From Escherichia coli (GTDB taxonomy: Bacteria; Pseudomonadota; Gammaproteobacteria; Enterobacterales; Enterobacteriaceae), in NCBI RefSeq assembly GCF_024502345.1, contig NZ_JALDNN010000001.1: a stretch of DNA of 64,000 nt. One strand, given 5' to 3'. A model generated the notes under the pieces. It made no database searches. It was not told the origin of the DNA and saw only the letters and a program-made list of their open reading frames with translations. Positions 3,416 to 56,064 of this stretch are shown one piece after another. Position 1 is the first letter of the stretch, and every line of letters starts with the position of its first letter. Position numbers and translations under genes: made by a program.

Positions 3416-4971
<1,556 letters not shown>

Positions 4972-5059: not shown

Positions 5060-5593
5060 ATGCGCCTGCTCCCTCTCGTTGCCGCAGCGACAGCTGCATT
5101 TCTGGTCGTTGCCTGCAGTTCTCCTACGCCGCCGCGTGGCGTGACCGTAGTGAATAATTTCGACGCTAAACGCTATCTCGGTACCTGGTATGAGATTGCC
5201 CGTTTTGATCACCGCTTTGAACGTGGACTGGAAAAAGTCACCGCAACATACAGCCTGCGTGATGACGGCGGCCTGAATGTCATTAATAAAGGCTATAACC
5301 CTGACAGAGGAATGTGGCAGCAGAGTGAAGGGAAAGCGTACTTTACCGGCGTACCAACTCGCGCTGCGCTGAAAGTGTCATTCTTTGGTCCTTTCTATGG
5401 CGGTTATAACGTCATTGCACTTGATCGGGAATACCGCCATGCGCTGGTTTGCGGCCCGGACCGCGACTACCTGTGGATACTCTCCCGCACGCCAACCATT
5501 TCTGACGAAGTGAAACAGGAGATGCTGGCAGTCGCGACCCGGGAAGGGTTTGATGTCAGTAAGTTTATTTGGGTACAGCAGCCCGGTAGTTAG
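5060..5593 (+). CDS. blc: outer membrane lipoprotein Blc (bacterial lipocalin)
   Basis: 177-aa ORF with lipobox LVVACSS and lipocalin motif [16 protein letters not shown]. Confidence 0.9.
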
Positions 5594-5907
5594 TGAGTGC
5601 TGAGTTTCAGACCAATAATCCCCAATACGATTAACGCCAGACTCGCCAGGCGCATCGGGTTAGCGGACTCACCGAGCAGTACAATGCCGGTGATGGCCGC
5701 GCCGACTGCGCCAATACCCGTCCACACGGCATAAGCCGTCCCTACTGGTAACGATTTCATCGCCCAGGCAAGTAGCGCCATACTGACAATCATCGCCGTC
5801 ACAGTAATAACACTCGGCGTCAAACGACTAAAGCCGTGGGTATATTTCAGGCCAACGGCCCATACCACTTCCAGCAGACCAGCAATAACTAAGATAATCC
5901 AGGACAT
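5590..5907 (-). CDS. gdx: guanidinium exporter Gdx (SugE), SMR family
   Basis: 105-aa ORF from [29 protein letters not shown]; the track ORF extends upstream but ATG at 5905-5907 gives the canonical protein. Confidence 0.9.
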
Positions 5908-5924
5908 ATCAGGCTCCGGAGAAT

Positions 5925-5971
5925 TGGGGCCGTCCCCGGTGAAAAGACGCGTTTGCAGGTCGTCCTGCAAA
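5925..5971 (-). promoter_or_regulatory. guanidine-II (mini-ykkC) riboswitch in the gdx leader
   Basis: Minus-strand reading shows two hairpins with ACGR tetraloops: TTGCAGG-ACGA-CCTGCAA (5953..5970) and GGGG-ACGG-CCCC (5926..5937), just upstream of the gdx start codon. Confidence 0.6.
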
Positions 5972-6081
5972 GCTGATGGTTGAACGGATATTTTGCCAGG
6001 TGGCAGGGGAATTTCAACTATTACCTTTGTGACTATCGCAGAGAAAACAAACGGCACGACACAGCTGTCGTACCGTTATTG

Positions 6082-20038: not shown

Positions 20039-20144
20039 CAGAAACACAGAAAAGAAGCGATTTGCCGCAATCTTAAGCAGTTGAATCGCTTTTACTGAAA
20101 TTAGGTTGACGAGATGTGCAGATTACGGTTTAATGCGCCCCGTT

Positions 20145-20220
20145 GCCCGGATAGCTCAGTCGGTAGAGCAGGGGATTGAAAATCCCCGTGTCCTTGGTTC
20201 GATTCCGAGTCCGGGCACCA
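20145..20220 (+). tRNA. pheU: tRNA-Phe (GAA anticodon)
   Basis: 76-nt GCCCGGATAGCTCAGTCGGTAGAGCAGGGGATTGAAAATCCCCGTGTCCTTGGTTCGATTCCGAGTCCGGGCACCA with anticodon loop TTGAAAA and 3-prime CCA; position after yjdC corresponds to pheU. Confidence 0.97.
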
Positions 20221-21071
20221 ATATTCATAAGGCCTCGCTGCAAAGCGGGGCTTTTTCCTTTTCTGGCTACGGTAGATTTCTGGTCGTTGCGGCACGTTAT
20301 TTGTTTGCTGGATTTCTCGCCATTTTCGCAGTTGTTCGTTACTTTTAGACACCTCAACATCCTTTGATGTACCTTTTCCTAACCTCACAGCTACGGTCTT
20401 TCTACGGTCCTCTACGATTCCTTTCTCTCAGAGCATTCATAATAAAGTAGAAAATACGGGGAAAACGGGGGAATTATCATTTCGCCCTAATCCGCAGGTC
20501 TTAACGTGATTTTGTCGCGGGGAATAAGGTGGGGAAATCCCCAATAGCAAGCGGGGAAATCTGGCAGCATACCCCCTCCACCATTCACATGGGGATCTTC
20601 ACCAGTCCGTCCACCTACAACAAGCTCTTCTTGCCCTTTCACTTCTTACCGTTTTCAGAATCCCCCGTTCTCCACGCCATCATAAAATGATTTATCCGTA
20701 AGCTTAACGTAATGGACTGTTGAACCTGAGTGTCCGCTGTGAGCGAAAAGCGGAACTTCTCACATAGGTAATGAAGCGTTTCCTAACGTCAGGGTGTACT
20801 AATCAACGAAGAGCAGGTCAGAGGACTCGAACCGCTTTCCTCTTCCATCTACGTAGAATTCCAAGAATTTATGTGCTTTCCAGTTACAATTTAGCCATGC
20901 TAAGTTAGAAAAAGCATTGAGTACCTTAGGATTGTATCGATGATACTCTAAGGATCTTGGAGGCTTGTGAGGCGTAAGGTTCAAAGCCAATAGTTTATTA
21001 ATAGTCACACAAGTGGCTCTATTTTTCGCCTACAAACCTATATTTTTCATACAAATAAAAGAAGTGTATTT

Positions 21072-22490
21072 ATGAATACTCAGCAAATTAAGGTTGGCAG
21101 TGTACCTGAAATTATTGAGCTATTACCAAACTCTAGCGAGCAGGCTGATTCTCATCCTTTCATCCTATCGGCAAACAGTGCATGGGGTGAACAGGGAGCA
21201 GAAATATCAATAGAGAGATTACGCCAAAATATCGAGCCTTGGCTAACAGCTCTCTTCCAATCCGAACATTTAAATTTATTGATAGGTGCGGGTTTAAGCA
21301 CGTCTATTCAAATATCGGCTACAGATTCACCTCCAGCTGGAATGGGTTGGATCAGCGATCTAGCCGTATGTAAAAGTGAAATAGATGCATTTTCTACTCT
21401 GGCTGCCAAAGCTGCAGGTCGCGATAACGGAAATATAGAAGATCAAATTAGAGCTATTAATGAACTTATTAAAGGGCTTGAAATTCTGACAGTGTTGAAT
21501 ACCCCTCAACCTGAAAATCCTCCAGCTCCTCATGCTGCTTATAGAAATCTAAAAACGGATTTAGAAATACTCAAGGGAGAGCTTTCTCGCTGCCTAGGTG
21601 AGTTTTCAAGATCTGTGAGTGCCGGAGAATACTTGATTAAAACTGCTGAACCAAAGCGTAAAGAGGAAACTTTCAACTATCTAGTTAGTTTCTTGATGAG
21701 CTTTGCAAGTAGGACCGCTACTCGCGATAGGTTGCATATTTTTACAACAAACTATGATCGCATTATTGAAGTAGGTGCTGAGCTTGCTGGTTTGAGACTT
21801 ATAGATCGCTTTGTAGGAAGTATCGCTCCAGTGTTTCGATCTTCAAGATTGGAGGTTGATTATCACTATAATCCTCCAGGAATTCGTGGCGAACCAAGAT
21901 ATTTAGAAGGCGTAGCGCGTTTTACTAAGCTTCATGGATCCCTTGATTGGCATGAACAAAATAGCGCGATTAGGCGCTTTGGTTTACCTTTTGGAGCACG
22001 TTCTGTTGAACCTTTTTTAGAAGCTGAAGGCCATCAAAGCAACAGCTTTGAACAACTTATGATTTACCCTAACTCAGTAAAAGATAGAGAAACTGCCGAG
22101 TACCCTTATGTTGAGCTATTTCGAGATCTAGCCGCAGCAACTAGCCGCCCAAATAGCACATTAGTCACCTATGGCTATAGCTTTGGTGATGAGCATATCA
22201 ACAGGGTAATTGAAGACATGCTTACAGTGCCTTCGACTCATGTAGTCATAATTGCCTTCGGAGATCCGCTTGGAAGAATCATAAATTTCATTAATAAGAG
22301 TGGAAGAAAAGCACAGATCACCCTATTAATGGGAGACCATTTAGGAGACCTCAAGACTTTAGTTGATAACTATTTACCTAAACCAGCTATTGATAAAGCA
22401 TCAATAAAAATGACTGAATTGCTTAAGCAAAGAGGATTTATCCAGCCCAAAGAATTAGGTAATTCAACTGGCTCCGAGGTATCACAATGA
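21072..22490 (+). CDS. SIR2-like NADase component of a SIR2-HerA anti-phage system
   Basis: 472-aa ORF with SIR2-family motifs GAGLS (in LLIGAGLSTS), TTNYD (in HIFTTNYDRII) and HGS (in TKLHGSLDW); translationally coupled to the downstream HerA-like gene. Confidence 0.8.
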   Translation: MNTQQIKVGSVPEIIELLPNSSEQADSHPFILSANSAWGEQGAEISIERLRQNIEPWLTALFQSEHLNLLIGAGLSTSIQISATDSPPAGMGWISDLAVCKSEIDAFSTLAAKAAGRDNGNIEDQIRAINELIKGLEILTVLNTPQPENPPAPHAAYRNLKTDLEILKGELSRCLGEFSRSVSAGEYLIKTAEPKRKEETFNYLVSFLMSFASRTATRDRLHIFTTNYDRIIEVGAELAGLRLIDRFVGSIAPVFRSSRLEVDYHYNPPGIRGEPRYLEGVARFTKLHGSLDWHEQNSAIRRFGLPFGARSVEPFLEAEGHQSNSFEQLMIYPNSVKDRETAEYPYVELFRDLAAATSRPNSTLVTYGYSFGDEHINRVIEDMLTVPSTHVVIIAFGDPLGRIINFINKSGRKAQITLLMGDHLGDLKTLVDNYLPKPAIDKASIKMTELLKQRGFIQPKELGNSTGSEVSQ

Positions 22491-24520
22491 GTTACTTACC
22501 AATAGAAAGATTAGAACAATTAAGAATTGGATCTGTTGGATTTGTATCACCTAATGAAATTAGAGTTTCTTTAGAGATTGACTCCCCTGATTCAGTGTCA
22601 CTTCAAGGCGGTTCCCCCCGCAATTTTCCTCGAATAAATAGTTATGTACTGATCAGTAGCGATGATGGATTTCTCGTCGGACAGGTTGAATGGATTGCCG
22701 TAGAACACTCTCCATACCCCAAAAGAAGAGGCTTACAAGATTTTGGCTTGATAGATCTTCCTTTTCCACTTAAAAAGCTCAGTATCAATCCCGTTGGTAC
22801 TTTGAGAGTCGATAGAAAAAACGAAGATTACAAGTTCACAAGAGGAACAGATGCTTTTCCCTCGGTTGGTGACTCCGTGCTCCTGCCTACTGACCGGCAA
22901 TTAAAATCAATAATAGAATCAGGTGACAATAGAAGAGTAAAAATAGGGGACAGCCCCCTAGCTAACAATGCGGAAATAAAAGTGGACCCTGATAGGCTTT
23001 TTGGACGACATTTAGCTGTTTTGGGCAATACAGGTAGTGGTAAATCATGCTCGGTTGCGGGGTTAATTCAATGGTCTTTAGATGCTGTTTTACAACAGGG
23101 ACAGATTCCAAATGCTCGGTTCATAATACTTGATCCAAATGGAGAATACAGTAGGGCATTCGGCCCAGAATCAAAATACAAGGGTAAGCTATTACGTGTA
23201 GAAGCTAACACTGGTGCTGAAGAGATAGATCTTAAAGTTCCGTCATGGTTATGGAATAGCTCTGAGTGGGGTGCTTTCACTCAAGCGAGTTCAAAAGTTC
23301 AACTTCCTTTACTACGCCGAGCTTTGAGGGCGATGAGAAATGATGTTTTATCAGAAGATGATGTGACAATCCAAGCGAAACACTTCTGCGGTATCCTACT
23401 CGTATCCATACGACAATTATCAAGCCAAGGCCAGATATATGTGAATGGCGGCCATGCCAAAGGTTTCGTTGATAGTTTAACGTCTTGGAATAATAGCCTG
23501 TCCACATTAAACGACAAAATCGATAACAAACCTTTCGATAATCTAATAAACACGATGAATGTGTATCTTTCCTCTCGTATAGGAATAAAATGGCCTGAAA
23601 AACCTGAAGTTTCAGATACTGATCAGTTGATTAATGAATTAAAAAATGCATATGAAACGCTTGGAGGTGATGAACAAGGACTTCTTCCAAAAAGTGAAGA
23701 TTCGCCTATTCGTTTTAAAGGGGATGATTTTGTCGCATACCTAGAAGCTCTAGCTCAAGAGACAGGCACAGAGCAATTCGTTGAATTCCTTTTGACTCGT
23801 ATTCGAACAATGCTAGGTGACACCCGTATAAGTGCAGTAACAAATGATTCGGAACAGCCTATCAGTTTAACTAATTGGTTAGACACTTTTCTCGGTAGAG
23901 ATGGACAAGGTTCCATAACTGTTATCGATTTATCGCTAGTCCCTAATGAAATAATACATTTGGTAACTGCTGTAATTTCCAGAGTAACTTTTGAAGCATT
24001 ACAACGTTATCGAAGACTTAAGGGGAAACCACTACCAACAGTTATGGTTGCAGAAGAAGCGCATACATTTATTAAACGCTACAAAGAAGATAGTGAGGGT
24101 CAGTCAGTCTCTGACGTATGCTGCAAAGTGTTTGAAAAGATCGCACGTGAAGGCAGGAAATTTGGGTTAGGTCTTGTAGTTTCTTCCCAACGACCCTCAG
24201 AGCTATCTCCGACTGTGTTATCTCAATGTAATACTTTTTTGTTGCACAGGATTAGTAATGATAGAGATCAAGAGCAAGTCCATAGACTTGTTCCCGATAA
24301 CATGAGGGGGTTGTTGAGGGAGTTGCCATCGCTACCATCTCGGCATGCCATTCTACTAGGATGGGCTTCTGAACTTCCGGTTTTAGTTAGAATGAAAGAG
24401 CTTACTGAAAAACAAAGACCACAATCTGACGATCCCGATTTTTGGGATGTGTGGTCTAACACTACAGAAGAGCCTCGCGAAGTTAATTGGCAACCAATAG
24501 CTGATGATTGGCAAAGTTAA
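22487..24520 (+). CDS. HerA-like FtsK/HerA-family ATPase of the SIR2-HerA system
   Basis: 677-aa ORF with Walker A GNTGSGKS, Walker B MVAEEAH and SSQRPSEL region; start overlaps the SIR2 stop (ATGA). Confidence 0.8.
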   Translation: MSYLPIERLEQLRIGSVGFVSPNEIRVSLEIDSPDSVSLQGGSPRNFPRINSYVLISSDDGFLVGQVEWIAVEHSPYPKRRGLQDFGLIDLPFPLKKLSINPVGTLRVDRKNEDYKFTRGTDAFPSVGDSVLLPTDRQLKSIIESGDNRRVKIGDSPLANNAEIKVDPDRLFGRHLAVLGNTGSGKSCSVAGLIQWSLDAVLQQGQIPNARFIILDPNGEYSRAFGPESKYKGKLLRVEANTGAEEIDLKVPSWLWNSSEWGAFTQASSKVQLPLLRRALRAMRNDVLSEDDVTIQAKHFCGILLVSIRQLSSQGQIYVNGGHAKGFVDSLTSWNNSLSTLNDKIDNKPFDNLINTMNVYLSSRIGIKWPEKPEVSDTDQLINELKNAYETLGGDEQGLLPKSEDSPIRFKGDDFVAYLEALAQETGTEQFVEFLLTRIRTMLGDTRISAVTNDSEQPISLTNWLDTFLGRDGQGSITVIDLSLVPNEIIHLVTAVISRVTFEALQRYRRLKGKPLPTVMVAEEAHTFIKRYKEDSEGQSVSDVCCKVFEKIAREGRKFGLGLVVSSQRPSELSPTVLSQCNTFLLHRISNDRDQEQVHRLVPDNMRGLLRELPSLPSRHAILLGWASELPVLVRMKELTEKQRPQSDDPDFWDVWSNTTEEPREVNWQPIADDWQS

Positions 24521-24941
24521 TTAACTTAACTAATTTTTAGTAGTGTTATAAGTAGTGGCTTATATCTGACATGACAGTTTAGGTTAGTAGTTTCAATCTA
24601 ACAGTAAGTGTCCACGGTGACGTTTTCATACTCAAATCTCCTGAAATGTGGGAGATTTGAGTATGGTTGTCCCTTATGAGCGAGGAGCGGAAGTTCTGCT
24701 TTAAGTGTATCAAACCCTCCAGCAAAGATGTTCTTGAATGTAATGCCATAATTTCCCTAACATTCCAGCACAAATCAATTAACTCTCAGTCCATAGTGTA
24801 TTTTACTTAAATTAAAATCAAATACTCTAGGAATTAAAATAACAAGATCACTTGCGATTATGCTATTTTAAATTAATATTTTTGTTTTTACTGGGGAACC
24901 TTCAAAACACGGAGCCAGATTTCTTCGTAGCTACCCTGTTG

Positions 24942-25766
24942 CTAGGGTTTCAAGTATTCCCCTAAAGGAAAGAAATTTTTTGACAACTTTTGGGATTCAG
25001 CAATTTTAACCAAATAAATATAGAATCCCAACAGAGCACTGTTCTCGCTTTCCCCCCTCGAATAGTGAACATGCCCAGGCACCTTCCGGATGAGGAAACC
25101 ATTATTTTTTACCAAATAATACCCTCTATCTAAAATTGTAATTACATCAGGCATATCATCTAAATCGATATTATTTCCAGTCATGTAATTAAACAGCGAA
25201 TCTCGTAAGGTACTTTCCTCTGGACCTTGGAAGGCTAGTAGTAAGAATGGTGTTTTTCTCAAGGTTGCACACATCCCTGAGATTTCCTCTACTAATTGCA
25301 CTGTATTTTGGGGAATATTTTCTTTCATAAAATAACCATCGTCAATACCGATTGGATTGATTCTTACCAAACCTTTTGACCTAACGCAAGCATCTAAGGT
25401 TGTCTTAAGGTTTGAAGCTCCTTCGGTCATTGAGCCAGTGTTTAATGAAGATTTACATTCAATTAACGCTAAAGCTGAATCGACAGGGACCATACACTGA
25501 TCTTTATCATAACTAAGTTTTAAAGAATGTTTCGAGTATATGATAATATCCATCTGACTTGAGAGATTATCCTTAGAGTCAAAAACCTGTCCTGATGTAA
25601 TATCTAAATTACTAGGGAGATTTGCTTTTAAAAATTCCCTTATTACAATTTCTCTAGCACTTCCTTTGCTACTCCCGTTCGTCGTTATGGATGACAAATT
25701 AAATGCTGAAACCAAAGATGCCGTATGGTTTTTTAAGTGTTTCTGGATTAATTTCATAAAGCTCAT
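24942..25766 (-). CDS. hypothetical protein, possible PD-(D/E)xK-like nuclease
   Basis: 274-aa ORF in AT-rich DNA convergent with herA; candidate motifs E (GSAREIVI), D (MDIIIYS) and ExK (ALIECKS); no family assigned with confidence. Confidence 0.5.
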   Translation of the reverse strand: MSFMKLIQKHLKNHTASLVSAFNLSSITTNGSSKGSAREIVIREFLKANLPSNLDITSGQVFDSKDNLSSQMDIIIYSKHSLKLSYDKDQCMVPVDSALALIECKSSLNTGSMTEGASNLKTTLDACVRSKGLVRINPIGIDDGYFMKENIPQNTVQLVEEISGMCATLRKTPFLLLAFQGPEESTLRDSLFNYMTGNNIDLDDMPDVITILDRGYYLVKNNGFLIRKVPGHVHYSRGESENSALLGFYIYLVKIAESQKLSKNFFPLGEYLKP

Positions 25767-26194
25767 TCCATTTTAATTTATCTACATCGCTTAAAGGCAA
25801 ATGATGCCACCGGCTACCAATTAAAAATTATCTCAACCTGAGAGATTTTTCCAGACTCCAAACGAAAATAAAAAACTACTCGTCACGTCCCTCCTGGCAC
25901 ATAGCCGACACCAAAACCAGCAACATATGGACAACGGTCCCTGCCCTGATGGCAGGTAATTGTATCAGACTTAAACACATATTATTTCTGTGAACTCCCC
26001 CCAACGGCAGTCCTTTCCTCTGAAGACCAGAACCAGACCGTAAAGCCTGCTCTTTCTGCATTTCCCGTATTAATTCATACCATGTGGCACCAGCATTCCC
26101 TTCGCCACACCAGAAAATCAATTCCCCAATAAAAAAGTGCCGTGCCGGGGATGGGTCAACCCTGACGTTCTTTACACCAGTCACAGGAGGTTAT

Positions 26195-27379
26195 ATGTCC
26201 ACCCCCAAACGCTTCCGTTTTACTAATCAGCTCATTAAATCCCTGCCCCCTAACACATCCGATGCACGCAGTACCGATGCCGAATACAGCGACACCGAGA
26301 TTTCCGGCCTCAAGTGTCTGGTCAGCAGAAGAGAAGGTCGTAAAAAGTTTTTGCTACGCTACCTTTATCATGGACGAAAACGCGCCATCGCCATTGGTCA
26401 CTGGCCTGAAGTGGACGTCAATCTTGCTCGTCAGATTGCCATAGAACACAAACGTTCCCTTGCCACCGGCACTGACCCTAAGCAGGAGCGTGAAAACAAG
26501 AGAATGGAGCTGACGTTCGATGAACTCTTTAATCAGCATTATCTGCCATGGGCAAAATCCGCTAAACGCAGTTGGGGAAAGGATGTTCAGCGCTACCGCG
26601 ATCATATCCGTCCCGCCATTGGTCAGAGGCTGCTGAGCGATATCACACCAGCGAGCATTCTGCGCCTTCAGCAGACGTTAAGTACTTCCCTGTCAGCAGC
26701 TACCTGTAACCGTGTCATCGTACTCATTAAAGCCGTCTTTACATGGGCCGGAAGGCAAAGCATGACCTCTGTCCATCCGGCAAGGGTGGTACAGCTTCTC
26801 AGGGAGAACAACGCCCGACAGCGCTATTTCACCGAGGACGAAATTCGTCGTATTTTTCTCTCCGCCGATAACGATACCAGCCCCGTCGCGGCCCGCTATG
26901 TCAAACTGTTGTTACTGACCGGCCTTCGTCGTGATGAGCTGCGTCTGGCTAAGTGGGAGCATGTTGACCCGGTTAAACGCACCCTGTGGCTCCCGGAAAC
27001 CAAGAATGGCTATGGGCGGATTGTTCACCTTAACTCACTGGCGATGGACGTAATCAGAACGCTGCCAACGCAGCGGGGAAATCCGTGGTTGTTTATCGGT
27101 AAAAAACAAGGAATGCCGCTGAATAACCCCGTTAAAGCCTTTCAGCGTATCGTTCGTCGGGCGGGAATTTTCGACCAGGAAGTGTGTATTCATACCTGCC
27201 GCCATTCGGTTGCCGCCCTCATCGTGTCCTACGGCGGAACACTGTATGACGTTCAGGCTCAACTGGGGCACCGCAGCAGTCAGTCTTCACAACGTTATGC
27301 GCATCTTCACCCTCAGCGCTTACAAAACACCAGTCAGTTACTGGCGGAAAGGATAACGGCTCAGCTACCGTCCTTGTGA
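26195..27379 (+). CDS. tyrosine-type site-specific integrase
   Basis: 394-aa ORF from ATG 26195 preceded by AGGAGG; catalytic boxes TGLRRDELRLAKWEHVD and HTCRHSVAAL...LGHRSSQSSQRYAHL (R, HxxR, Y). Confidence 0.85.
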   Translation: MSTPKRFRFTNQLIKSLPPNTSDARSTDAEYSDTEISGLKCLVSRREGRKKFLLRYLYHGRKRAIAIGHWPEVDVNLARQIAIEHKRSLATGTDPKQERENKRMELTFDELFNQHYLPWAKSAKRSWGKDVQRYRDHIRPAIGQRLLSDITPASILRLQQTLSTSLSAATCNRVIVLIKAVFTWAGRQSMTSVHPARVVQLLRENNARQRYFTEDEIRRIFLSADNDTSPVAARYVKLLLLTGLRRDELRLAKWEHVDPVKRTLWLPETKNGYGRIVHLNSLAMDVIRTLPTQRGNPWLFIGKKQGMPLNNPVKAFQRIVRRAGIFDQEVCIHTCRHSVAALIVSYGGTLYDVQAQLGHRSSQSSQRYAHLHPQRLQNTSQLLAERITAQLPSL

Positions 27380-45654: not shown

Positions 45655-45993
45655 ATGAGCGTAACTATAAAAGACGATCGACTCCGTACCATCGCTACCT
45701 TTGACGGTAAAACCCTGAAAGACGACCGGCTCAGGACCATCGCAACGTTTGACGGTAAAACCCTGAAAGACGACCGGCTCAGAACCATCTCAACTTTTGA
45801 CGGTAAAACCCTGAAAGACGACCGACTCCGCACCATCGCTACCTTTGATGGCAAGACCCTGAAAGACGATCGACTCCGCACCATCGCAACATTTGATGGT
45901 AAAACACTTAAAGACGATCGACTCAGAACCATCGCGACAGTTAATGGTAATGTTAGTATTGTTGTTTTGGCGTTTGCTGCTCGGCTATTTTAG
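45655..45993 (+). CDS. hypothetical tandem-repeat protein
   Basis: ORF after AGGAGA with five full and one partial 16-aa repeats (DDRLRTIATFDGKTLK), encoded by 48-bp tandem DNA repeats; could instead be a non-coding minisatellite. Confidence 0.4.
   Translation: MSVTIKDDRLRTIATFDGKTLKDDRLRTIATFDGKTLKDDRLRTISTFDGKTLKDDRLRTIATFDGKTLKDDRLRTIATFDGKTLKDDRLRTIATVNGNVSIVVLAFAARLF
45667..45960. repeat. 48-bp tandem repeat array, about six copies
   Basis: Near-identical units AAAGACGAYCGRCTCMGNACCATCGCNACNTTTGAYGGYAARACCCTG repeated head to tail. Confidence 0.85.
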
Positions 45994-49762: not shown

Positions 49763-50503
49763 TCAGAAGTTATAAGTCACACCAAGCATGATGTCATGAC
49801 TTTTAACATCAACCTCTGATTTATATTTATCGCCCCACTCATCCTTGTAACTCACACTGCTGTCACCTGCATCAATATAGCGATAGCTGAGGTCAAGAGC
49901 GATATCCGGGGTTACGTCATAACGGACACCAGCCCCAAGGCTCCATGCAAAGTTGTCAGCAGAGTCTGAGTGTGACAACGACTCACGCCCACTGTACCCG
50001 TACCCGTAATCCCAAGTACTGATACCAGTTGTTTTCTGATGAATTCTGGCGTAACCAATCCCTGCGGATACCCATGGTGTGAATGCACTGTCGTTCCGGA
50101 AGTCATAGTACGTATTCAGCATCAGAGTGTTGACTGACACTTCATTCTTCAGGTCATCACGCCAGTAACCACCTGACCAGCTGTCTTTATCTACGTTATA
50201 CTTCGAATCAGCTTTTCCACGCGCGTAAAACTCCAGTTCTGTACGAACCGGAATACTGAACTGCGGATAAAAATCATAACCGGCCGCAATACCGCCACTG
50301 AATACCGTATCATGGTCATCGCCGCCTTTATACTTTGACGTTTCTTCCTCATCTCCTGACAGGAAACGCTGGTCTGAAAGTGACACCACAGAGGCACCGG
50401 CTTTACCGGTCAGATAAAAACCGCTTTTACCTTCCTCAGCACCTGCATTTGCTGCAAATACACAGGCTGCGGCCACCACTGAAACAGCAAAAACCTTTTT
50501 CAT
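49763..50503 (-). CDS. outer-membrane beta-barrel protein
   Basis: 246-aa ORF with signal peptide MKKVFAVSVVAAACVFAANAGA, alternating aromatic/hydrophilic strands and C-terminal ...GVTYNF. Confidence 0.7.
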   Translation of the reverse strand: MKKVFAVSVVAAACVFAANAGAEEGKSGFYLTGKAGASVVSLSDQRFLSGDEEETSKYKGGDDHDTVFSGGIAAGYDFYPQFSIPVRTELEFYARGKADSKYNVDKDSWSGGYWRDDLKNEVSVNTLMLNTYYDFRNDSAFTPWVSAGIGYARIHQKTTGISTWDYGYGYSGRESLSHSDSADNFAWSLGAGVRYDVTPDIALDLSYRYIDAGDSSVSYKDEWGDKYKSEVDVKSHDIMLGVTYNF

Positions 50504-50937
50504 TTCAATTATCTCCGTTATTGCTCCGTTGCTGCAAGCAGTACTCAGTGCATTTTAAAACCCGCCATGCGATAGTCTCAATTGAATAAAATCGATCGAA
50601 TCGATAGATGATATCGATCGTCATTAACCAGAAATTTTTATCGTATTCAGTCAGCACAGATACAACAAATGCATGCCATGCAGACAGTCATACCCGGCAA
50701 CAACAGCAGATGGTTGCTGAGCAAGCAGGGAGTGAGGCTGAATCCCGGGGAAGAAAAAACCTGTAAAATTTGTTTATTCTGCCAGGAGATAAAAGTGACG
50801 TGTGTTCATGTAACACACCAGGGACGAAAGATGCATGGACTGACAGTTTGGGGGATATGATGCAACTACAGACCAAAGTGTGAATCAGTATGACCCGGGC
50901 CAGAGTTTGTGCGGTTTCTTTATATAAAAAAGCCCAC

Positions 50938-51374
50938 GGTAATGACTCCAACTTATTGATAGTGTTTTATGTTCAGATAATGCCCGATGACTTTGTCATG
51001 CAGCTCCACCGATTTTGAGAACGACAGCGACTTCCGTCCCAGCCGTGCCAGGTGCTGCCTCAGATTCAGGTTATGCCGCTCAATTCGCTGCGTATATCGC
51101 TTGCTGATTACGTGCAGCTTTCCCTTCAGGCAGGATTCATACAGCGGCCAGCCATCCGTCATCCATATCACCACGTCAAAGGGTGACAGCAGGCTCATAA
51201 GACGCCCCAGCGTCGCCATCGTGCGTTCACCGAATACGTGCGCAACAACCGTCTTCCGGAGCCTGTCATACGCGTAAAACAGCCAGCGCTGGCGCGATTT
51301 AGCCCCGACATAGCCCCACTGTTCGTCCATTTCCGCGCAGACGATGACGTCACTGCCCGGCTGTATGCGCGAGG
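50938..51374 (-). mobile_element. truncated IS1 (right end and 3-prime part of insB)
   Basis: Begins with IS1 terminal sequence GGTAATGACTCCAACTTATTGATAGTG; minus-strand ORF 50953..51330 encodes the InsB C-terminal portion ([22 protein letters not shown]...); IS1 similarity stops near 51374. Confidence 0.85.
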
Positions 51375-51445
51375 TTACCTGCTCCCCGTTGATTAATACA
51401 CCGTGATGTTAGTAATGTCTTCATAAGCCACATGAGGACATCCCC

Positions 51446-51709
51446 ATGAAGAAGCGTTTTTCCGACGAACAGATCATATGTATTCTCCGCGAGGCCGAAG
51501 CTGGCGTTTCTGCCCGTGAGCTCTGCCGTAAGCACGCCATTTCCGACGCCACCTTTTACACATGGCGTAAGAAGTATGGCGGTATGGAGGTGCCTGAGGT
51601 TAAGCGCCTGAAGTCGCTTGAGGAAGAGAACGCCAGACTCAAGAAGCTGCTTGCCGAAGCCATGCTGGATAAAGAGGCGCTTCAGGTGGCTCTTGGGCGA
51701 AAGTACTGA
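51446..51709 (+). CDS. IS3-family transposase OrfA (HTH)
   Basis: 87-aa [52 protein letters not shown]. Confidence 0.85.
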
Positions 51710-51732
51710 CGACAGACCAGAAGCGGGAAGCC

Positions 51733-52566
51733 GTGATGTTGATGTGTGATGCGACCGGTCTGTCGCAACGTCGTGCCTGCAGGCTTACAGGTTTATCCCT
51801 GTCGACCTGCCGCTATGAGGCTCACCGTCCGGCTGCTGATGCGCATTTATCAGGGCGCATCACTGAGCTGGCACTGGAGCGCAGGCGTTTTGGCTACCGT
51901 CGTATTTGGCAGTTGCTGCGCCGTGAAGGGCTTCATGTTAATCATAAGCGCGTGTACCGGCTTTATCACCTCAGTGGCCTGAGCGTAAAACGCAGAAGAC
52001 GTCGTAAAGGGCTGGCAACAGAACGTCTGCCGCTGCTCCGTCCGGCGGCGCCCAATCTGACCTGGTCGATGGATTTCGTCATGGACGCACTTTCCACCGG
52101 TCGCAGGATCAAGTGTCTTACCTGCGTCGATGATTTCACAAAGGAATGCCTGACGGTCACTGTTGCCTTTGGGATTTCAGGCGTTCAGGTCACGCGTATT
52201 CTGGACAGCATTGCACTGTTTCGAGGCTATCCGGCGACGATAAGAACTGACCAGGGGCCGGAGTTCACTTGCCGTGCACTGGATCAATGGGCCTTTGAGC
52301 ATGGTGTTGAGTTGCGCTTAATCCAGCCGGGCAAGCCAACGCAGAACGGATTTATTGAGAGCTTTAACGGACGATTTCGCGATGAATGTTTGAATGAGCA
52401 CTGGTTCAGCGATATCGTTCATGCCAGGAAAATTATTAATGACTGGCGGCAGGATTATAACGAATGCCGCCCGCACTCCACGCTGAATTATCAGACACCG
52501 TCTGAATTTGCAGCGGGCTGGAGAAAGGGTCATTCTGAGAATGAAGATTCCGACGTTACTAACTGA
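51733..52566 (+). CDS. IS3-family transposase OrfB (DDE catalytic domain)
   Basis: 277-aa ORF with integrase-core segments TWSMDFV, TDQGPEF and [16 protein letters not shown]; probably expressed as an OrfAB frameshift fusion. Confidence 0.85.
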
Positions 52567-52812
52567 GTGTTGTATCTAATCGTGGGGGCAGGTCACTCGA
52601 CTTGGTTCCATTAAAAACCATGAAGTTGATATAGGGTCAAGATTTTATACGATATACACATCAAGCATCTTGCATGAGTCGCACTGACTGACCCGGGTTA
52701 GTTACCATCATATTCTTTATGGTTGAGACCATACGGAAATCAGTGAATTAAAAATATTTATTCATCCAAAACACAAATGGTTTTAAGAAAGCCTAATGCC
52801 CTTCTTGTAAAA

Positions 52813-53082
52813 TTATTCAAGATAGTCAAGTATGTTTTTTATATTGTCAATTAAGGCGACATGCAGGTCAGGGTCATCACATTCATCTGAATGGCAATAG
52901 GAAATATGTTGAAGTATAATTCTTTTTTTGAATTCACTAACTGTACACTCCAACTCATACACCGACCGTACGATATCAATACAAGGTTCATCATCGATTA
53001 AAAAATCCTGCATTTTATTATACTTATCAGTCAGATCTTCTATCATAGAAATTAATACGGGGTCATTAACTAACATTGGCAT
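52813..53082 (-). CDS. hypothetical small protein
   Basis: About 89 codons from MPMLVNDPVLISMIEDL with upstream AGGAGA; downstream of and co-oriented with the AraC-family gene. Confidence 0.4.
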   Translation of the reverse strand: MPMLVNDPVLISMIEDLTDKYNKMQDFLIDDEPCIDIVRSVYELECTVSEFKKRIILQHISYCHSDECDDPDLHVALIDNIKNILDYLE

Positions 53083-53488
53083 ATCTCTCCTCATAATCTG
53101 AAAGTAAAGATGGACACAGCGCTGATAAATTCCAATTCCCTTGCTTGCGGTACCGACCGGGAGGAAGATGAAACTTGTTTTTAAAAGCTCTCGTGAAAGT
53201 TTGTTGCGAATTAAAACCATACTGAAGTGCAATGTCTAGGACTGTTCTGGAAGTCAATTTCAGATCAATCGCAGCACATGATAATCGACGAGCACGAACA
53301 TATTCACCCAGCGCAACACCGGTCGTCTGTTTAAACAAACGTTGAAAATGCCATCGTGAATACCCAGACTTCTCAGCAATAAATTCTACTGGCAAGGTTG
53401 TATTCAATGAACTTTCAACCCACTGCAAAATATCTTTGACAACACTTTCAGAATATTTCCTGGTGTCCATTCTCTCCCCCCAAACCAT
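53066..53488 (-). CDS. AraC/XylS-family transcriptional regulator (MarA/SoxS-like)
   Basis: ORF with paired HTH segments LPVEFIAEKSGYSRWHFQRLFKQTTGVALGEY and DIALQYGFNSQQTFTRAFKNKF. Confidence 0.8.
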   Translation of the reverse strand: MVWGERMDTRKYSESVVKDILQWVESSLNTTLPVEFIAEKSGYSRWHFQRLFKQTTGVALGEYVRARRLSCAAIDLKLTSRTVLDIALQYGFNSQQTFTRAFKNKFHLPPGRYRKQGNWNLSALCPSLLSDYEERYANVS

Positions 53489-53562
53489 ATTCTATGAATA
53501 TATTCAAACCAGAATACGGTCTCTGAGTCTGTCATCCATGAAGAACTCAGGGACCCAACTCT

Positions 53563-56064
53563 TTATTTTCGTAATAACCTCAGGCCATTTGCCACAACCA
53601 GAAGACTGGCACCAACATCAGCAAATACAGCCATCCACATAGTTCCCATTCCCATGAGCGTGAGTACAAGGAATACGGCTTTAATACCTAGAGCGAGGCT
53701 GATATTTTGCACGAGTAAGCTGTACGTTTGTCGGGATAATTTTACAAAGGCTGGGATTTTACGCAGGTCATCATCCATTAAGGCTACATCTGCAGTTTCA
53801 ATCGCCGTATCAGTACCCATTGCGCCCATAGCAAAACCGATATCAGCTGCAGCCAGAGCCGGTGCATCATTGATACCATCACCAACCATCCCAGTGATTC
53901 CAATCCGTGAATGCTCTTCAACTGCACGATGTTTATCTTCTGGCAATTGATTCCCTCGAGCCTCATCGATTCCAACCTGAGATGCGATTGCTTTAGCTGT
54001 ATGTGGGTTATCACCAGTCAGCATAATAGTTTTAACGCCAAGTTCATGAAGTTGTTCAATCGCTTCACGGCTGCTGTTTTTAACAGTATCAGCAACAGCG
54101 AACAACCCAAGCACTTGCTTACCATCATTGAGTAAAATAACTGTTTTACCCTGGCTTTCCAGCCTTTGTACTGTTGCTTTAATCTCTGATGGACAATTAA
54201 AGTGTTCTTCAGTCAAACGCAGGTTACCAAGGTAAAAATCCTTACCTGTAATCGCGCCATGCACACCTCGCCCAACAATCGCTTCAAAGCTGTCAACATC
54301 CTGCTTTTTCAAATCAGCAGAAGCATTCACAATTGCCAGTGAAACAGGGTGATCAGAGTAACTAGCGAGACTAGCTGCAGTAGTACGAACTTCACGCTCG
54401 CTCCACCCATTGAATACCATTACGTCGGTTTGTACTGGTTTCCCATAGGTAATAGTTCCTGTTTTATCCAGCGCAAGGGCTTTTAGCTTACGTCCCTGCT
54501 CAAGATAAACACCGCCTTTAATGAGAATCCCTTTGCGAGCAGCTGCAGTAAGTCCACTAACAATCGTTACTGGCGTAGAAATAACCAGGGCACATGGACA
54601 CGCAATGACAAGCATAACTAAAGCTTTATAGATCCACTCCTGCCATGTTCCTGCCCCAAACAATGGTGGCAATACAGCAACCGCAACAGCAATACCCATA
54701 ACGACGGGGGTATAAATCTGGGAAAAGCGGTCAACAAAACGTTGTGTAGCTGCTTTGGCGCCTTGCGCCTGCTCAACGGCATGAATGATGCGAGCAAGGG
54801 TTGTATTATTTGCAGCTGCAGTGACTTTATATTCAAAAGAGCCTGACTGATTTATTGTTCCAGCAAATACAGCATCGCCCGCAATTTTATCGACAGGCAT
54901 ACTTTCACCTGTAATTGGAGCTTGGTTAATGGTGGTTTGGCCTTTGACGATTTCTCCGTCGAGACCAATTCGTTCACCTGGTTTTACCCTGACAATACTG
55001 CCCGGTTGTACGCTACTGGCGTCAACTTCCTGCCATGTTCCATCAGCTTGTTGGACCATTGCAGTTTCAGGAGTCAGGTTCATCAGGGAACCTATTGCAT
55101 TTCTGGCTCTATCAAGTGATTTGGCTTCTATCAGCTCGGCAATGGTGAATAACACCATAACCATCGCCGCTTCTGGCCACTGCCCAAGGACCAAAGCCCC
55201 AGTAACGGCAATACTCATTAGTGCATTGATATTCAAGTTGCCATTGCGAATCGAAATCCAACCTTTTTTGTAGGTTGTCAGACCACAAGAAAGCACTGCT
55301 ATCAAAGCCAACCCAGCTTCTAGCCAGTCAGGCATATCAGCCCAGTGCATCACTTCGGCTGCAAGAGCAGCTACGCCAGCAAGAGCTAATGGCCACCAGG
55401 GCTTTTTTTTCTCCTGGGTATTTTTCTTGCCGCTAGTATTATCAGAGACTTCTGGCGCGAATCCCAACGAGCGAATTGCAGCCATGATAGCTTCAAGCGA
55501 ATCCGGTGTATGGGTTACAGTCAAAACACGCTGCATCAGGTTGAAATCAAGCTCTTTAACAGCGCTCATTCCACCCAGTTTCTTTTTGATAAGATTTTCT
55601 TCAACAGGACAATCCATCTGCATAATGCGAATTTCTGTCCGTAATCCACCAGCCACAACCTGCGAGCCCCCTAGGCTACTCAATTGTTCTGGAGCAGCGG
55701 AGCAACAATCCCCCTCATGGCCGTGATCGTGGCCTTCATGAGAATGCTCTTGCGCGGCATGAGCATGGTTACATCCCTTATGATTATGCTCATCATGCGA
55801 ATGCCCTTCGCCGCCATGGCTATGGGCATCATGATTATGGCCTTCATGGTTATGGCCTTCATGGTTATGACCTTCATGGGAATGATCATCACTGCATTTC
55901 TTGTGATTATGAGCCTGCTGATCATGTGCATGATCATTTGCTTTATGTGATTCACCAGTATTCTTAACCCGGAGTCCTGTCCCTAAATTGAACGTTTCAC
56001 AGCAACTAGCCGCTTCGTCTCCTGCAGGGTTTTTGCTATTTTTTACACCACCACTCATTTTCAT
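53563..56064 (-). CDS. heavy-metal-translocating P1B-type ATPase (Zn/Cd/Pb-type, ZntA/CadA-like) with His-rich N-terminus
   Basis: 833-aa ORF with His-rich N-terminal repeats (HEGHNHEGHNHEGHNH), metal-binding DCP motif, membrane CPC motif (VIACPCALV), phosphorylation site DKTGT and GDGINDAP. Confidence 0.85.
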   Translation of the reverse strand: MKMSGGVKNSKNPAGDEAASCCETFNLGTGLRVKNTGESHKANDHAHDQQAHNHKKCSDDHSHEGHNHEGHNHEGHNHDAHSHGGEGHSHDEHNHKGCNHAHAAQEHSHEGHDHGHEGDCCSAAPEQLSSLGGSQVVAGGLRTEIRIMQMDCPVEENLIKKKLGGMSAVKELDFNLMQRVLTVTHTPDSLEAIMAAIRSLGFAPEVSDNTSGKKNTQEKKKPWWPLALAGVAALAAEVMHWADMPDWLEAGLALIAVLSCGLTTYKKGWISIRNGNLNINALMSIAVTGALVLGQWPEAAMVMVLFTIAELIEAKSLDRARNAIGSLMNLTPETAMVQQADGTWQEVDASSVQPGSIVRVKPGERIGLDGEIVKGQTTINQAPITGESMPVDKIAGDAVFAGTINQSGSFEYKVTAAANNTTLARIIHAVEQAQGAKAATQRFVDRFSQIYTPVVMGIAVAVAVLPPLFGAGTWQEWIYKALVMLVIACPCALVISTPVTIVSGLTAAARKGILIKGGVYLEQGRKLKALALDKTGTITYGKPVQTDVMVFNGWSEREVRTTAASLASYSDHPVSLAIVNASADLKKQDVDSFEAIVGRGVHGAITGKDFYLGNLRLTEEHFNCPSEIKATVQRLESQGKTVILLNDGKQVLGLFAVADTVKNSSREAIEQLHELGVKTIMLTGDNPHTAKAIASQVGIDEARGNQLPEDKHRAVEEHSRIGITGMVGDGINDAPALAAADIGFAMGAMGTDTAIETADVALMDDDLRKIPAFVKLSRQTYSLLVQNISLALGIKAVFLVLTLMGMGTMWMAVFADVGASLLVVANGLRLLRK

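Follow-up and report, generated by a model that had tools for sequence, protein, structure and literature searches.

A guanidine-II riboswitch in the chromosomal gdx leader of Escherichia coli and a possible role of its P2 strand in sequestering the ribosome-binding site

Introduction

Two small tandem hairpins precede gdx (sugE) on the chromosome of Escherichia coli, and they raise two questions: whether they form a guanidine-II (mini-ykkC) riboswitch and, if so, which part of the leader would close the ribosome-binding site (RBS) when guanidinium is absent. The locus lies in what we call the window, namely, the whole 64,000-nt stretch of contig NZ_JALDNN010000001.1 that was analyzed here. 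The original prediction, drawn from the letters of this window, placed such a riboswitch on the minus strand at 5925-5971, upstream of an exporter of the SugE/Gdx family, and proposed an Infernal/Rfam scan as its check. The RefSeq/PGAP records hold no riboswitch annotation at this position; in the literature, the E. coli sugE leader itself has been described as a guanidine-II riboswitch (PMC9300104, PMC9094411, PMC5486947, PMC13064478). Guanidine-II RNAs are considered translational ON switches (PMC5558903, PMC12186494), and ligand-dependent ribosome loading has been demonstrated for the Pseudomonas aeruginosa member (PMC9561414).

Architecture of the gdx leader

The features of the locus, in window coordinates, are as follows:

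3643-4971, plus strand: ampC, neighboring gene
5060-5593, plus strand: blc, neighboring gene
5907-5590, minus strand: gdx (sugE) open reading frame, a 105-aa guanidinium exporter of the SMR family and the gene under riboswitch control
5907-5905, minus strand: gdx start codon AUG, 18 nt after the end of P2
Between Shine–Dalgarno and start codon, minus strand: CCUGAU (sequence)
5917-5914, minus strand: Shine–Dalgarno (SD) GGAG, 8 nt 3' of P2 and 6 nt 5' of the start codon (sequence)
Between P2 and SD, minus strand: spacer of 8 nt, AAUUCUCC
5937-5926, minus strand: P2 hairpin, 4-bp stem GGGG/CCCC, ACGG loop at 5933-5930 (sequence, Rfam alignment)
5951-5938, minus strand: linker of 14 nt, CGCGUCUUUUCACC
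5971-5952, minus strand: P1 hairpin, 8-bp stem UUUGCAGG/CCUGCAAA, ACGA loop at 5963-5960 (sequence, Rfam alignment, stem covariation in relatives)
6017-5990, minus strand: promoter-like site TTGAAA, 16 nt, TG-CAAAAT (consensus scan only)
6077-6050, minus strand: terminator-like hairpin and U-tract after ecnB, 12-bp stem with UGUUUUCUCU tail (terminator scan)
6229-6083, minus strand: ecnB, neighboring gene

The two tandem minus-strand hairpins with ACGA and ACGG tetraloops that had been claimed for the gdx leader are confirmed by the sequence, at 5971-5926. The predicted range of 5925-5971 is also that of the Rfam match described below, but its first position, 5925, is an unpaired A and the hairpins stop at 5926, the Rfam alignment nevertheless placing C5938/A5925 as a non-canonical fifth pair of P2. 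Their GC-closed cores read GG ACGA CC in P1 and GGGG ACGG CCCC in P2, with all consensus core positions matched in the cmscan alignment, and folding gives P1 a formation probability of 0.99. The linker, at 14 nt, falls within the 9-27 nt seen among Gdx-associated instances of the family, and P2 directly adjoins the gdx RBS, the element thus standing where the family is expected, 5' of the RBS of a guanidine-related gene. The same GGAG is assigned as the SD in PMC13064478 (Fig. 1 legend).

The identity attributed to the downstream gene holds as well, its product matching the NCBIfam equivalog NF008512 over residues 1-104 of 105 (193.5 bits against a cut-off of 126) and Pfam PF00893 (115.3 bits against 23.7); in RefSeq, it is WP_000118482.1, SugE. 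Beyond ecnB lie ecnA, efp, and epmB, and the window is E. coli chromosome. The 3' ends of gdx (minus strand) and blc (plus strand) are convergent and overlap by 4 bp at 5590-5593, as they also do in a Citrobacter-type plasmid copy of the locus. The terminator-like hairpin at 6050-6077 sets the gdx leader apart from the ecnB transcript that precedes it, and the promoter-like site at 5990-6017 would place the 5' end of the gdx transcript some 10-15 nt before P1, although this site is weak evidence because one was found when 0.6 are expected in shuffles.

Membership of the guanidine-II family

The Infernal/Rfam scan returned RF01068 (Guanidine-II) at 5925-5971 on the minus strand with 49.3 bits against a gathering score of 32, over model positions 1-48 of 48 and with an E-value of 9.5e-07 (whole window, 4,227 Rfam families). 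The same scan gave no window match to the guanidine-I, -III, or -IV riboswitches at Rfam thresholds. With this full-length match, a Gdx gene downstream, and literature on the very same leader, the guanidine-II identity put forward by the original prediction is supported; we found no evidence against it, the caveats touching mechanistic detail only. On this basis, we conclude with high confidence that the two-hairpin element is a chromosomal guanidine-II riboswitch in the gdx 5' leader, acting as a translational ON switch.

With regard to chance expectation, the core octamer GGACGRCC is unremarkable by itself (three matches in the window against 2.3 expected). Tandem ACGR hairpins, defined here as two ACGR-tetraloop hairpins of at least 4 bp each and 7-40 nt apart, are rare by comparison: dinucleotide shuffling of the window produces 0.09 of them on average, and in a set of 200 shuffles just 16 contained any. 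Two further pairs of ACGR hairpins, whose A/U-rich stems are weak, occur in the window; both lie in a coding tandem repeat of 48-nt units at 45670-45935 (plus strand; 5.5 copies, 87% match, also readable with a 144-nt period), which presumably encodes a repeated protein module and yields weak UUUG-ACGG-UAAA pseudo-hairpins resembling tandem ACGR loops. The Rfam scan matched none of these pairs and, as parts of the coding repeat, the ACGG hairpin pairs at 45.7 kb were rejected as riboswitches.

Conservation in relatives and within E. coli

Orthologous leaders scoring above the Rfam threshold (32.1-47.2 bits) were found in Citrobacter, Enterobacter, Superficieibacter, Providencia, Yersinia, Pseudomonas, and Bradyrhizobium. 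To collect instances, a loop-core pattern was searched over a collection of species-representative genomes and a metagenome collection, and a hit was kept only when followed by a Gdx-like open reading frame whose start aligns with M1 of Gdx; being chosen by gene context, the set used for covariation is unbiased by stem quality. Across 42 such Gdx-associated instances, 81.7% of stem cells are paired (67.1% when shuffled) and 110 cells are changed on both sides (46.6 when shuffled), for a covariation score of 0.419 compared with 0.151 in shuffles and at most 0.136 in registers slid by 1-3 columns. Compensatory changes on both sides were seen at 10 of the 15 stem pairs, the inner two pairs of P1 and inner three of P2 being fixed by the search pattern and hence carrying no covariation information.

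Within the species, 5,425 of the 5,426 complete genomes match a 701-nt query across the site, the annotation there being sugE/ecnB/blc in every case, and a near-full-length match to the leader is absent from a handful of the 5,426. The 86-nt leader allele of the window is found unchanged in 1,121 of these genomes, including listed O157:H7 strains, and the K-12 allele in 3,153. The sole difference between the two is a linker polymorphism at 5948 (G in the window and C in K-12; CGCGUCUUUU vs CGCCUCUUUU), which separates major E. coli lineages and sits in the proposed anti-SD of the linker. Strains F11 and AREA_487 carry a second variant, with UUCC in place of CUCC at the SD-proximal end of the spacer. 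The sampled leader variants alter the linker or the spacer alone, P1 and P2 being invariant in all strains aligned.

Known behavior of the E. coli RNA and its ON mechanism

The E. coli RNA has itself been studied directly. The 49-nt aptamer (Gdn49), analyzed by NMR and SAXS, binds guanidinium with a KD of 133 uM and gains new G-C imino signals upon binding; in this system, the ACGA-bearing P1 is the stronger site, an isolated ACGG-bearing P2 hairpin binds no ligand detectably by NMR, and intermolecular dimers predominate in vitro (PMC9300104). Ligand-dependent kissing of P1 and P2 in cis was observed by smFRET in PMC9094411, which also cites the crystal structure of the E. coli P1 dimer as PDB 5NDI. 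As for genetics, guanidinium induces gdx in the wild type and enhances gdx-dependent phenotypes, and the Cs+-resistant strain ZX-1, which has lost P2 and some of the spacer through a 20-bp deletion (mRNA sense CCGGGGACGGCCCCAAUUCU), expresses gdx constitutively (PMC13064478). Because NMR, SAXS, crystal, smFRET, and genetic data all bear on the E. coli RNA itself, the first reading of this locus is correct and its content already known.

Mechanistically, every ACGR tetraloop takes up one guanidinium ion, and the P1 and P2 loops, each holding its ion, pair through their C and G residues into a kissing-loop complex. This complex locks both hairpins and leaves the SD/start-codon region just 3' of P2 free for the ribosome, so that the Gdx exporter, a guanidinium/H+ antiporter of the SMR family, is made when guanidinium accumulates; with the ligand absent, the RBS is sequestered. 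Guanidinium binding, loop kissing, induction of gdx, and constitutive expression upon loss of P2 have all been shown for this RNA in the literature. Since the exporter gated by this riboswitch also has a bearing on how well cells tolerate quaternary ammonium compounds and Cs+, biocide tolerance may be altered where P1 or P2 is disrupted, be it naturally or on plasmids.

Which strand holds the ribosome-binding site without ligand?

The partner of the RBS in the ligand-free state is usually drawn as the linker. Here, we tentatively propose that in E. coli the functional anti-RBS is the P2 strand instead, a model-based reading to which we give somewhat less than even weight. Under this reading, the 5' arm, the four loop nucleotides, and the 3' arm of P2 would pair with the GG and the G of the SD, the next two C, the G of the AUG, and codon 2, and formation of the P2 hairpin and occlusion of the RBS would be mutually exclusive. 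The minimum free energy (MFE) structure of the full leader lacks P2 and has the following pairing in and around the start region:

5914-5901, minus strand: predicted ligand-free RBS pairing segments (MFE structures)
5936-5932, minus strand: GGGAC, predicted to pair with GUCCU at 5905-5901 (G of the AUG and codon 2)
5931-5929, minus strand: GGC (loop G5931, loop G5930, and C5929), predicted to pair with GCC at 5914-5912
5927-5926, minus strand: CC, predicted to pair with the SD GG at 5917-5916

Consistent with this, the P2 hairpin is only marginally stable in the full leader (predicted probability of about 0.2), and the P2 strand forms the best predicted duplex with the RBS, at -12.4 kcal/mol, followed by P1 (-10.1), the early coding sequence (-10.0), and the 5' flank (-4.6), the linker coming last at only -3.5 kcal/mol with either allele of 5948.

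This last value bears on the competing explanation, in which a pyrimidine-rich anti-SD in the P1–P2 linker (CUCUUUU in K-12) pairs with the SD while the hairpins remain folded, and kissing pulls the linker off. Such an anti-SD was proposed for E. coli in PMC9300104 (Fig. 1A) and PMC9094411 (Fig. 1A), a related P0 helix combining 5' flank, linker, and SD is supported by mutations in P. aeruginosa (PMC9561414), and in the leaders L031, L046, L058, and L081, pair probabilities assign the RBS mainly to the linker. In E. coli, however, besides the weak duplex energy, the putative anti-SD position is polymorphic, with G in about 1,121 genomes and C in about 3,153, and the ZX-1 deletion spares nearly the whole linker (at most its last two C are lost), yet leaves gdx constitutive. 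The ZX-1 strain is not a clean test in this regard, because its deletion also brings the linker beside the SD. All in all, we consider the linker model rather unlikely for E. coli, and the P2-overlap model appears to fit this leader better.

Family-wide complementarity offers a second line of evidence for the P2 strand. If the P2 loop pairs with the RBS region, its fourth base (A or G) should be mirrored there, and in 153 non-redundant Gdx-associated instances, 5-mers complementary to the ACGG-loop region occur in the RBS spacers of 14 of 74 leaders with an ACGG P2 as compared with 3 of 79 with an ACGA P2 (Fisher p=0.004), and in 12 of 47 against 3 of 55 when counted by sequence cluster (p=0.005), the 14 observed contrasting with 5.0 in shuffles. 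The same trend emerges from a probe-swap duplex test (p=9e-6; by cluster p=0.005), and some single complements beside the start codon are striking (L008 GGCCGUCC, L013 GGGUCGUC, L098 GGUCGUCC, and L134 GGGCCGUC). With 4-mers, the contingency test of loop against RBS fell short of significance (p=0.06 over instances, 0.10 over clusters), a reversed-k-mer control was null, and A-type complements are uninformative since P1 is ACGA in every instance by the search pattern. The clear complement to the P2 loop is also limited to a minority of the family, the other members being predicted to use the linker or the flank, in line with the P0 helix demonstrated in P. aeruginosa (PMC9561414); in E. coli it is split (GCC ... 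GUCC) and, as it does not vary within the enterobacterial cluster, yields no covariation signal of its own. The folds and the complementarity seen across the family together point to the P2 strand as a likelier partner of the RBS than the linker anti-SD.

Predicted opening energies of the ribosome footprint shift in the expected direction, from 8.15 kcal/mol in the free leader to 7.24 with P1 and P2 enforced and 6.24 with a ZX-1-type deletion, that is, by only 1-2 kcal/mol in the nearest-neighbor model, and the SD remains paired with codons 2-3 in the structure predicted when P2 is enforced. Simple thermodynamics is not decisive here, because the natural deletion of E. coli strain 167, described below, predicts tighter occlusion, opposite to the phenotype of ZX-1.

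A third explanation would shift the control from translation to transcription or mRNA fate, P1 and CGCGUCUUUU acting as a weak terminator or pause, or an untranslated leader letting Rho or RNase E remove the transcript, with guanidinium counteracting this. Indeed, a terminator scan flags P1 and its U-run, gdx mRNA is strongly raised in the P2-deletion strain as measured by RNA-seq (PMC13064478), and in guanidine-III, control of translation reportedly goes together with shielding from RNase E (PMC9094411, PMC12186494). However, the U-run has only four U and begins 6 nt past the P1 stem, and the linkers of other members are not U-rich; P1 with UCUUUU was therefore rejected as an intrinsic terminator, on grounds of poor geometry and of a U-run that is no family trait. 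Raised mRNA is, moreover, the expected secondary effect of translation in E. coli. With the class described as exclusively translational and refolded P. aeruginosa RNA loading ribosomes in a ligand-dependent manner (PMC9561414), we deem this explanation highly improbable. As for the idea that the ecnB–gdx intergenic region holds the hairpins by chance or for structural reasons, without ligand sensing, for which one could invoke the chance frequency of the octamer, it is refuted by the far-above-threshold Rfam score, the shuffle statistics, the near-universal presence of the element in E. coli, its covariation across phyla, and the direct biophysical data on the same sequence (PMC9300104, PMC9094411), and we give it practically no credence.

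Separately, a P0-type helix between AUCAG (5977-5973) and the CUGAU that lies between SD and AUG was considered and rejected: the pairing is not maintained in relatives, E. albertii (ACCAG) and C. werkmanii (ACCAG, CUCAU) breaking it without compensation.

If the P2 strand is indeed the anti-RBS, the textbook E. coli expression platform, with its linker anti-SD, would be wrong, and aptamer and platform would be the same 12 nucleotides. The fourth base of the P2 loop would then coevolve with the sequence 3' of the SD in a sizeable subset of the family (GGAG-GUC vs GGAG-GCC or GGAG-CC), and isolates with a natural deletion of P2, strain 167 among them, would have to be viewed as regulatory mutants in the export of guanidinium, biocides, and Cs+. 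The idea of an overlap with P2 is not new, since Huang, Wang and Lilley suggested such a stem for Gloeobacter violaceus (PMC5486947).

Natural disruptions of the leader

In E. coli strain 167, a urine isolate (L245, NZ_CM132950.1), a natural 29-nt deletion, aligned to window positions 5922-5950, takes the linker, the whole of P2, and part of the spacer, and joins P1 to CUCCGGAG; the Rfam scan of this leader does not detect the element. The deletion resembles the 20-bp laboratory deletion of ZX-1, in which gdx is constitutive (PMC13064478), and simple folding predicts an RBS opening energy of 11.6 kcal/mol, that is, a tighter occlusion.

Copies of the leader (window equivalent 5880-6020) with 80-90% identity were also found in 669 plasmid records (about 81% among the matches listed), where they belong to the Citrobacter-type blc-sugE segment beside ISEcp1-blaCMY-2, and plasmid gdx under guanidine-II control is mentioned in PMC12186494. 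The riboswitch is intact on one blaCMY-2 IncI plasmid (L002). On blaCMY-2 IncI plasmids of a second type (L003), the similarity of the leader stops inside P1, the 5' arm and part of the loop being missing, and the Rfam scan of this leader found no riboswitch. To judge from these alignments, the mobilized segment appears to end inside P1 in the second type and, with neither an intact P1 nor an Rfam match in its leader, the plasmid Gdx may therefore be misregulated.

Other features of the window

A tRNA-Phe(GAA) at 20145-20217 is followed by a rare island (region 20145-27379), at least 80% of the 20100-26100 interval being covered in just 2 of the 5,426 complete E. coli genomes. The island encodes the following:

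21072-22490: SIR2 protein of a SIR2-HerA anti-phage defense pair (PADLOC, E 2.7e-154)
22487-24520: HerA ATPase of the SIR2-HerA anti-phage defense pair (PADLOC, E 2e-252)
24942-25766, minus strand: DUF6602 protein
26084-27379: tyrosine integrase

Further along, an IS-rich stretch at 50500-54500, with ISSen4- and IS1-like matches, adjoins a heavy-metal P-type ATPase and an HTH regulator and includes an IS3-family programmed-frameshift element (RF00383, 156.6 bits, 51676-51793). None of the complete genomes covers 80% of this 4-kb stretch in a single piece.

Comparison with known systems

Among RNAs that sense the same ligand, guanidine-I (ykkC), -III, and -IV control overlapping genes (Gdx/SugE exporters and guanidine carboxylases) with unrelated folds, classes I and IV being transcriptional and class III a pseudoknot (PMC12186494, PMC9094411). 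Within the guanidine-II class, the P. aeruginosa riboswitch (PMC5558903, PMC9561414) shares with that of E. coli two ACGR hairpins 5' of an SMR exporter gene, translational ON control, and cooperative guanidinium binding through a loop–loop kiss. Unlike in E. coli, its ligand-free state is the P0 helix, in which 5' flank and linker pair with the SD, and its P2 loop is drawn as equivalent to that of P1; the two loops of E. coli differ, P1 carrying ACGA and P2 ACGG. The logic that we favor for E. coli is closer to that of Gloeobacter violaceus (PMC5486947), for which a potential stem-loop overlapping P2 and the RBS, and exclusive with the folded riboswitch, was proposed as we infer it here; the two differ in their stem sequences, and the G. 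violaceus P2 lies 6 bp from the RBS.

The Citrobacter-type blc-sugE riboswitch of blaCMY-2 plasmids, which was mobilized by ISEcp1 next to blaCMY-2, has a leader 81% identical to that of the window, with the same P1 and P2, the same ACGA and ACGG loops, GGAGCC, and AUGUCCUGG, but differs by a 13-nt linker and another spacer (AUUGUUCU). Closest of all is the E. coli K-12 sugE/gdx riboswitch, which is the same locus with the same P1, P2, loops, spacer, SD, and start, the aligned sequence differing at 5948 only. The value of our result for annotation is accordingly small: as the element is in Rfam and has been characterized structurally and genetically in E. coli, a plain label suffices, and the locus can be labeled the guanidine-II riboswitch of gdx.
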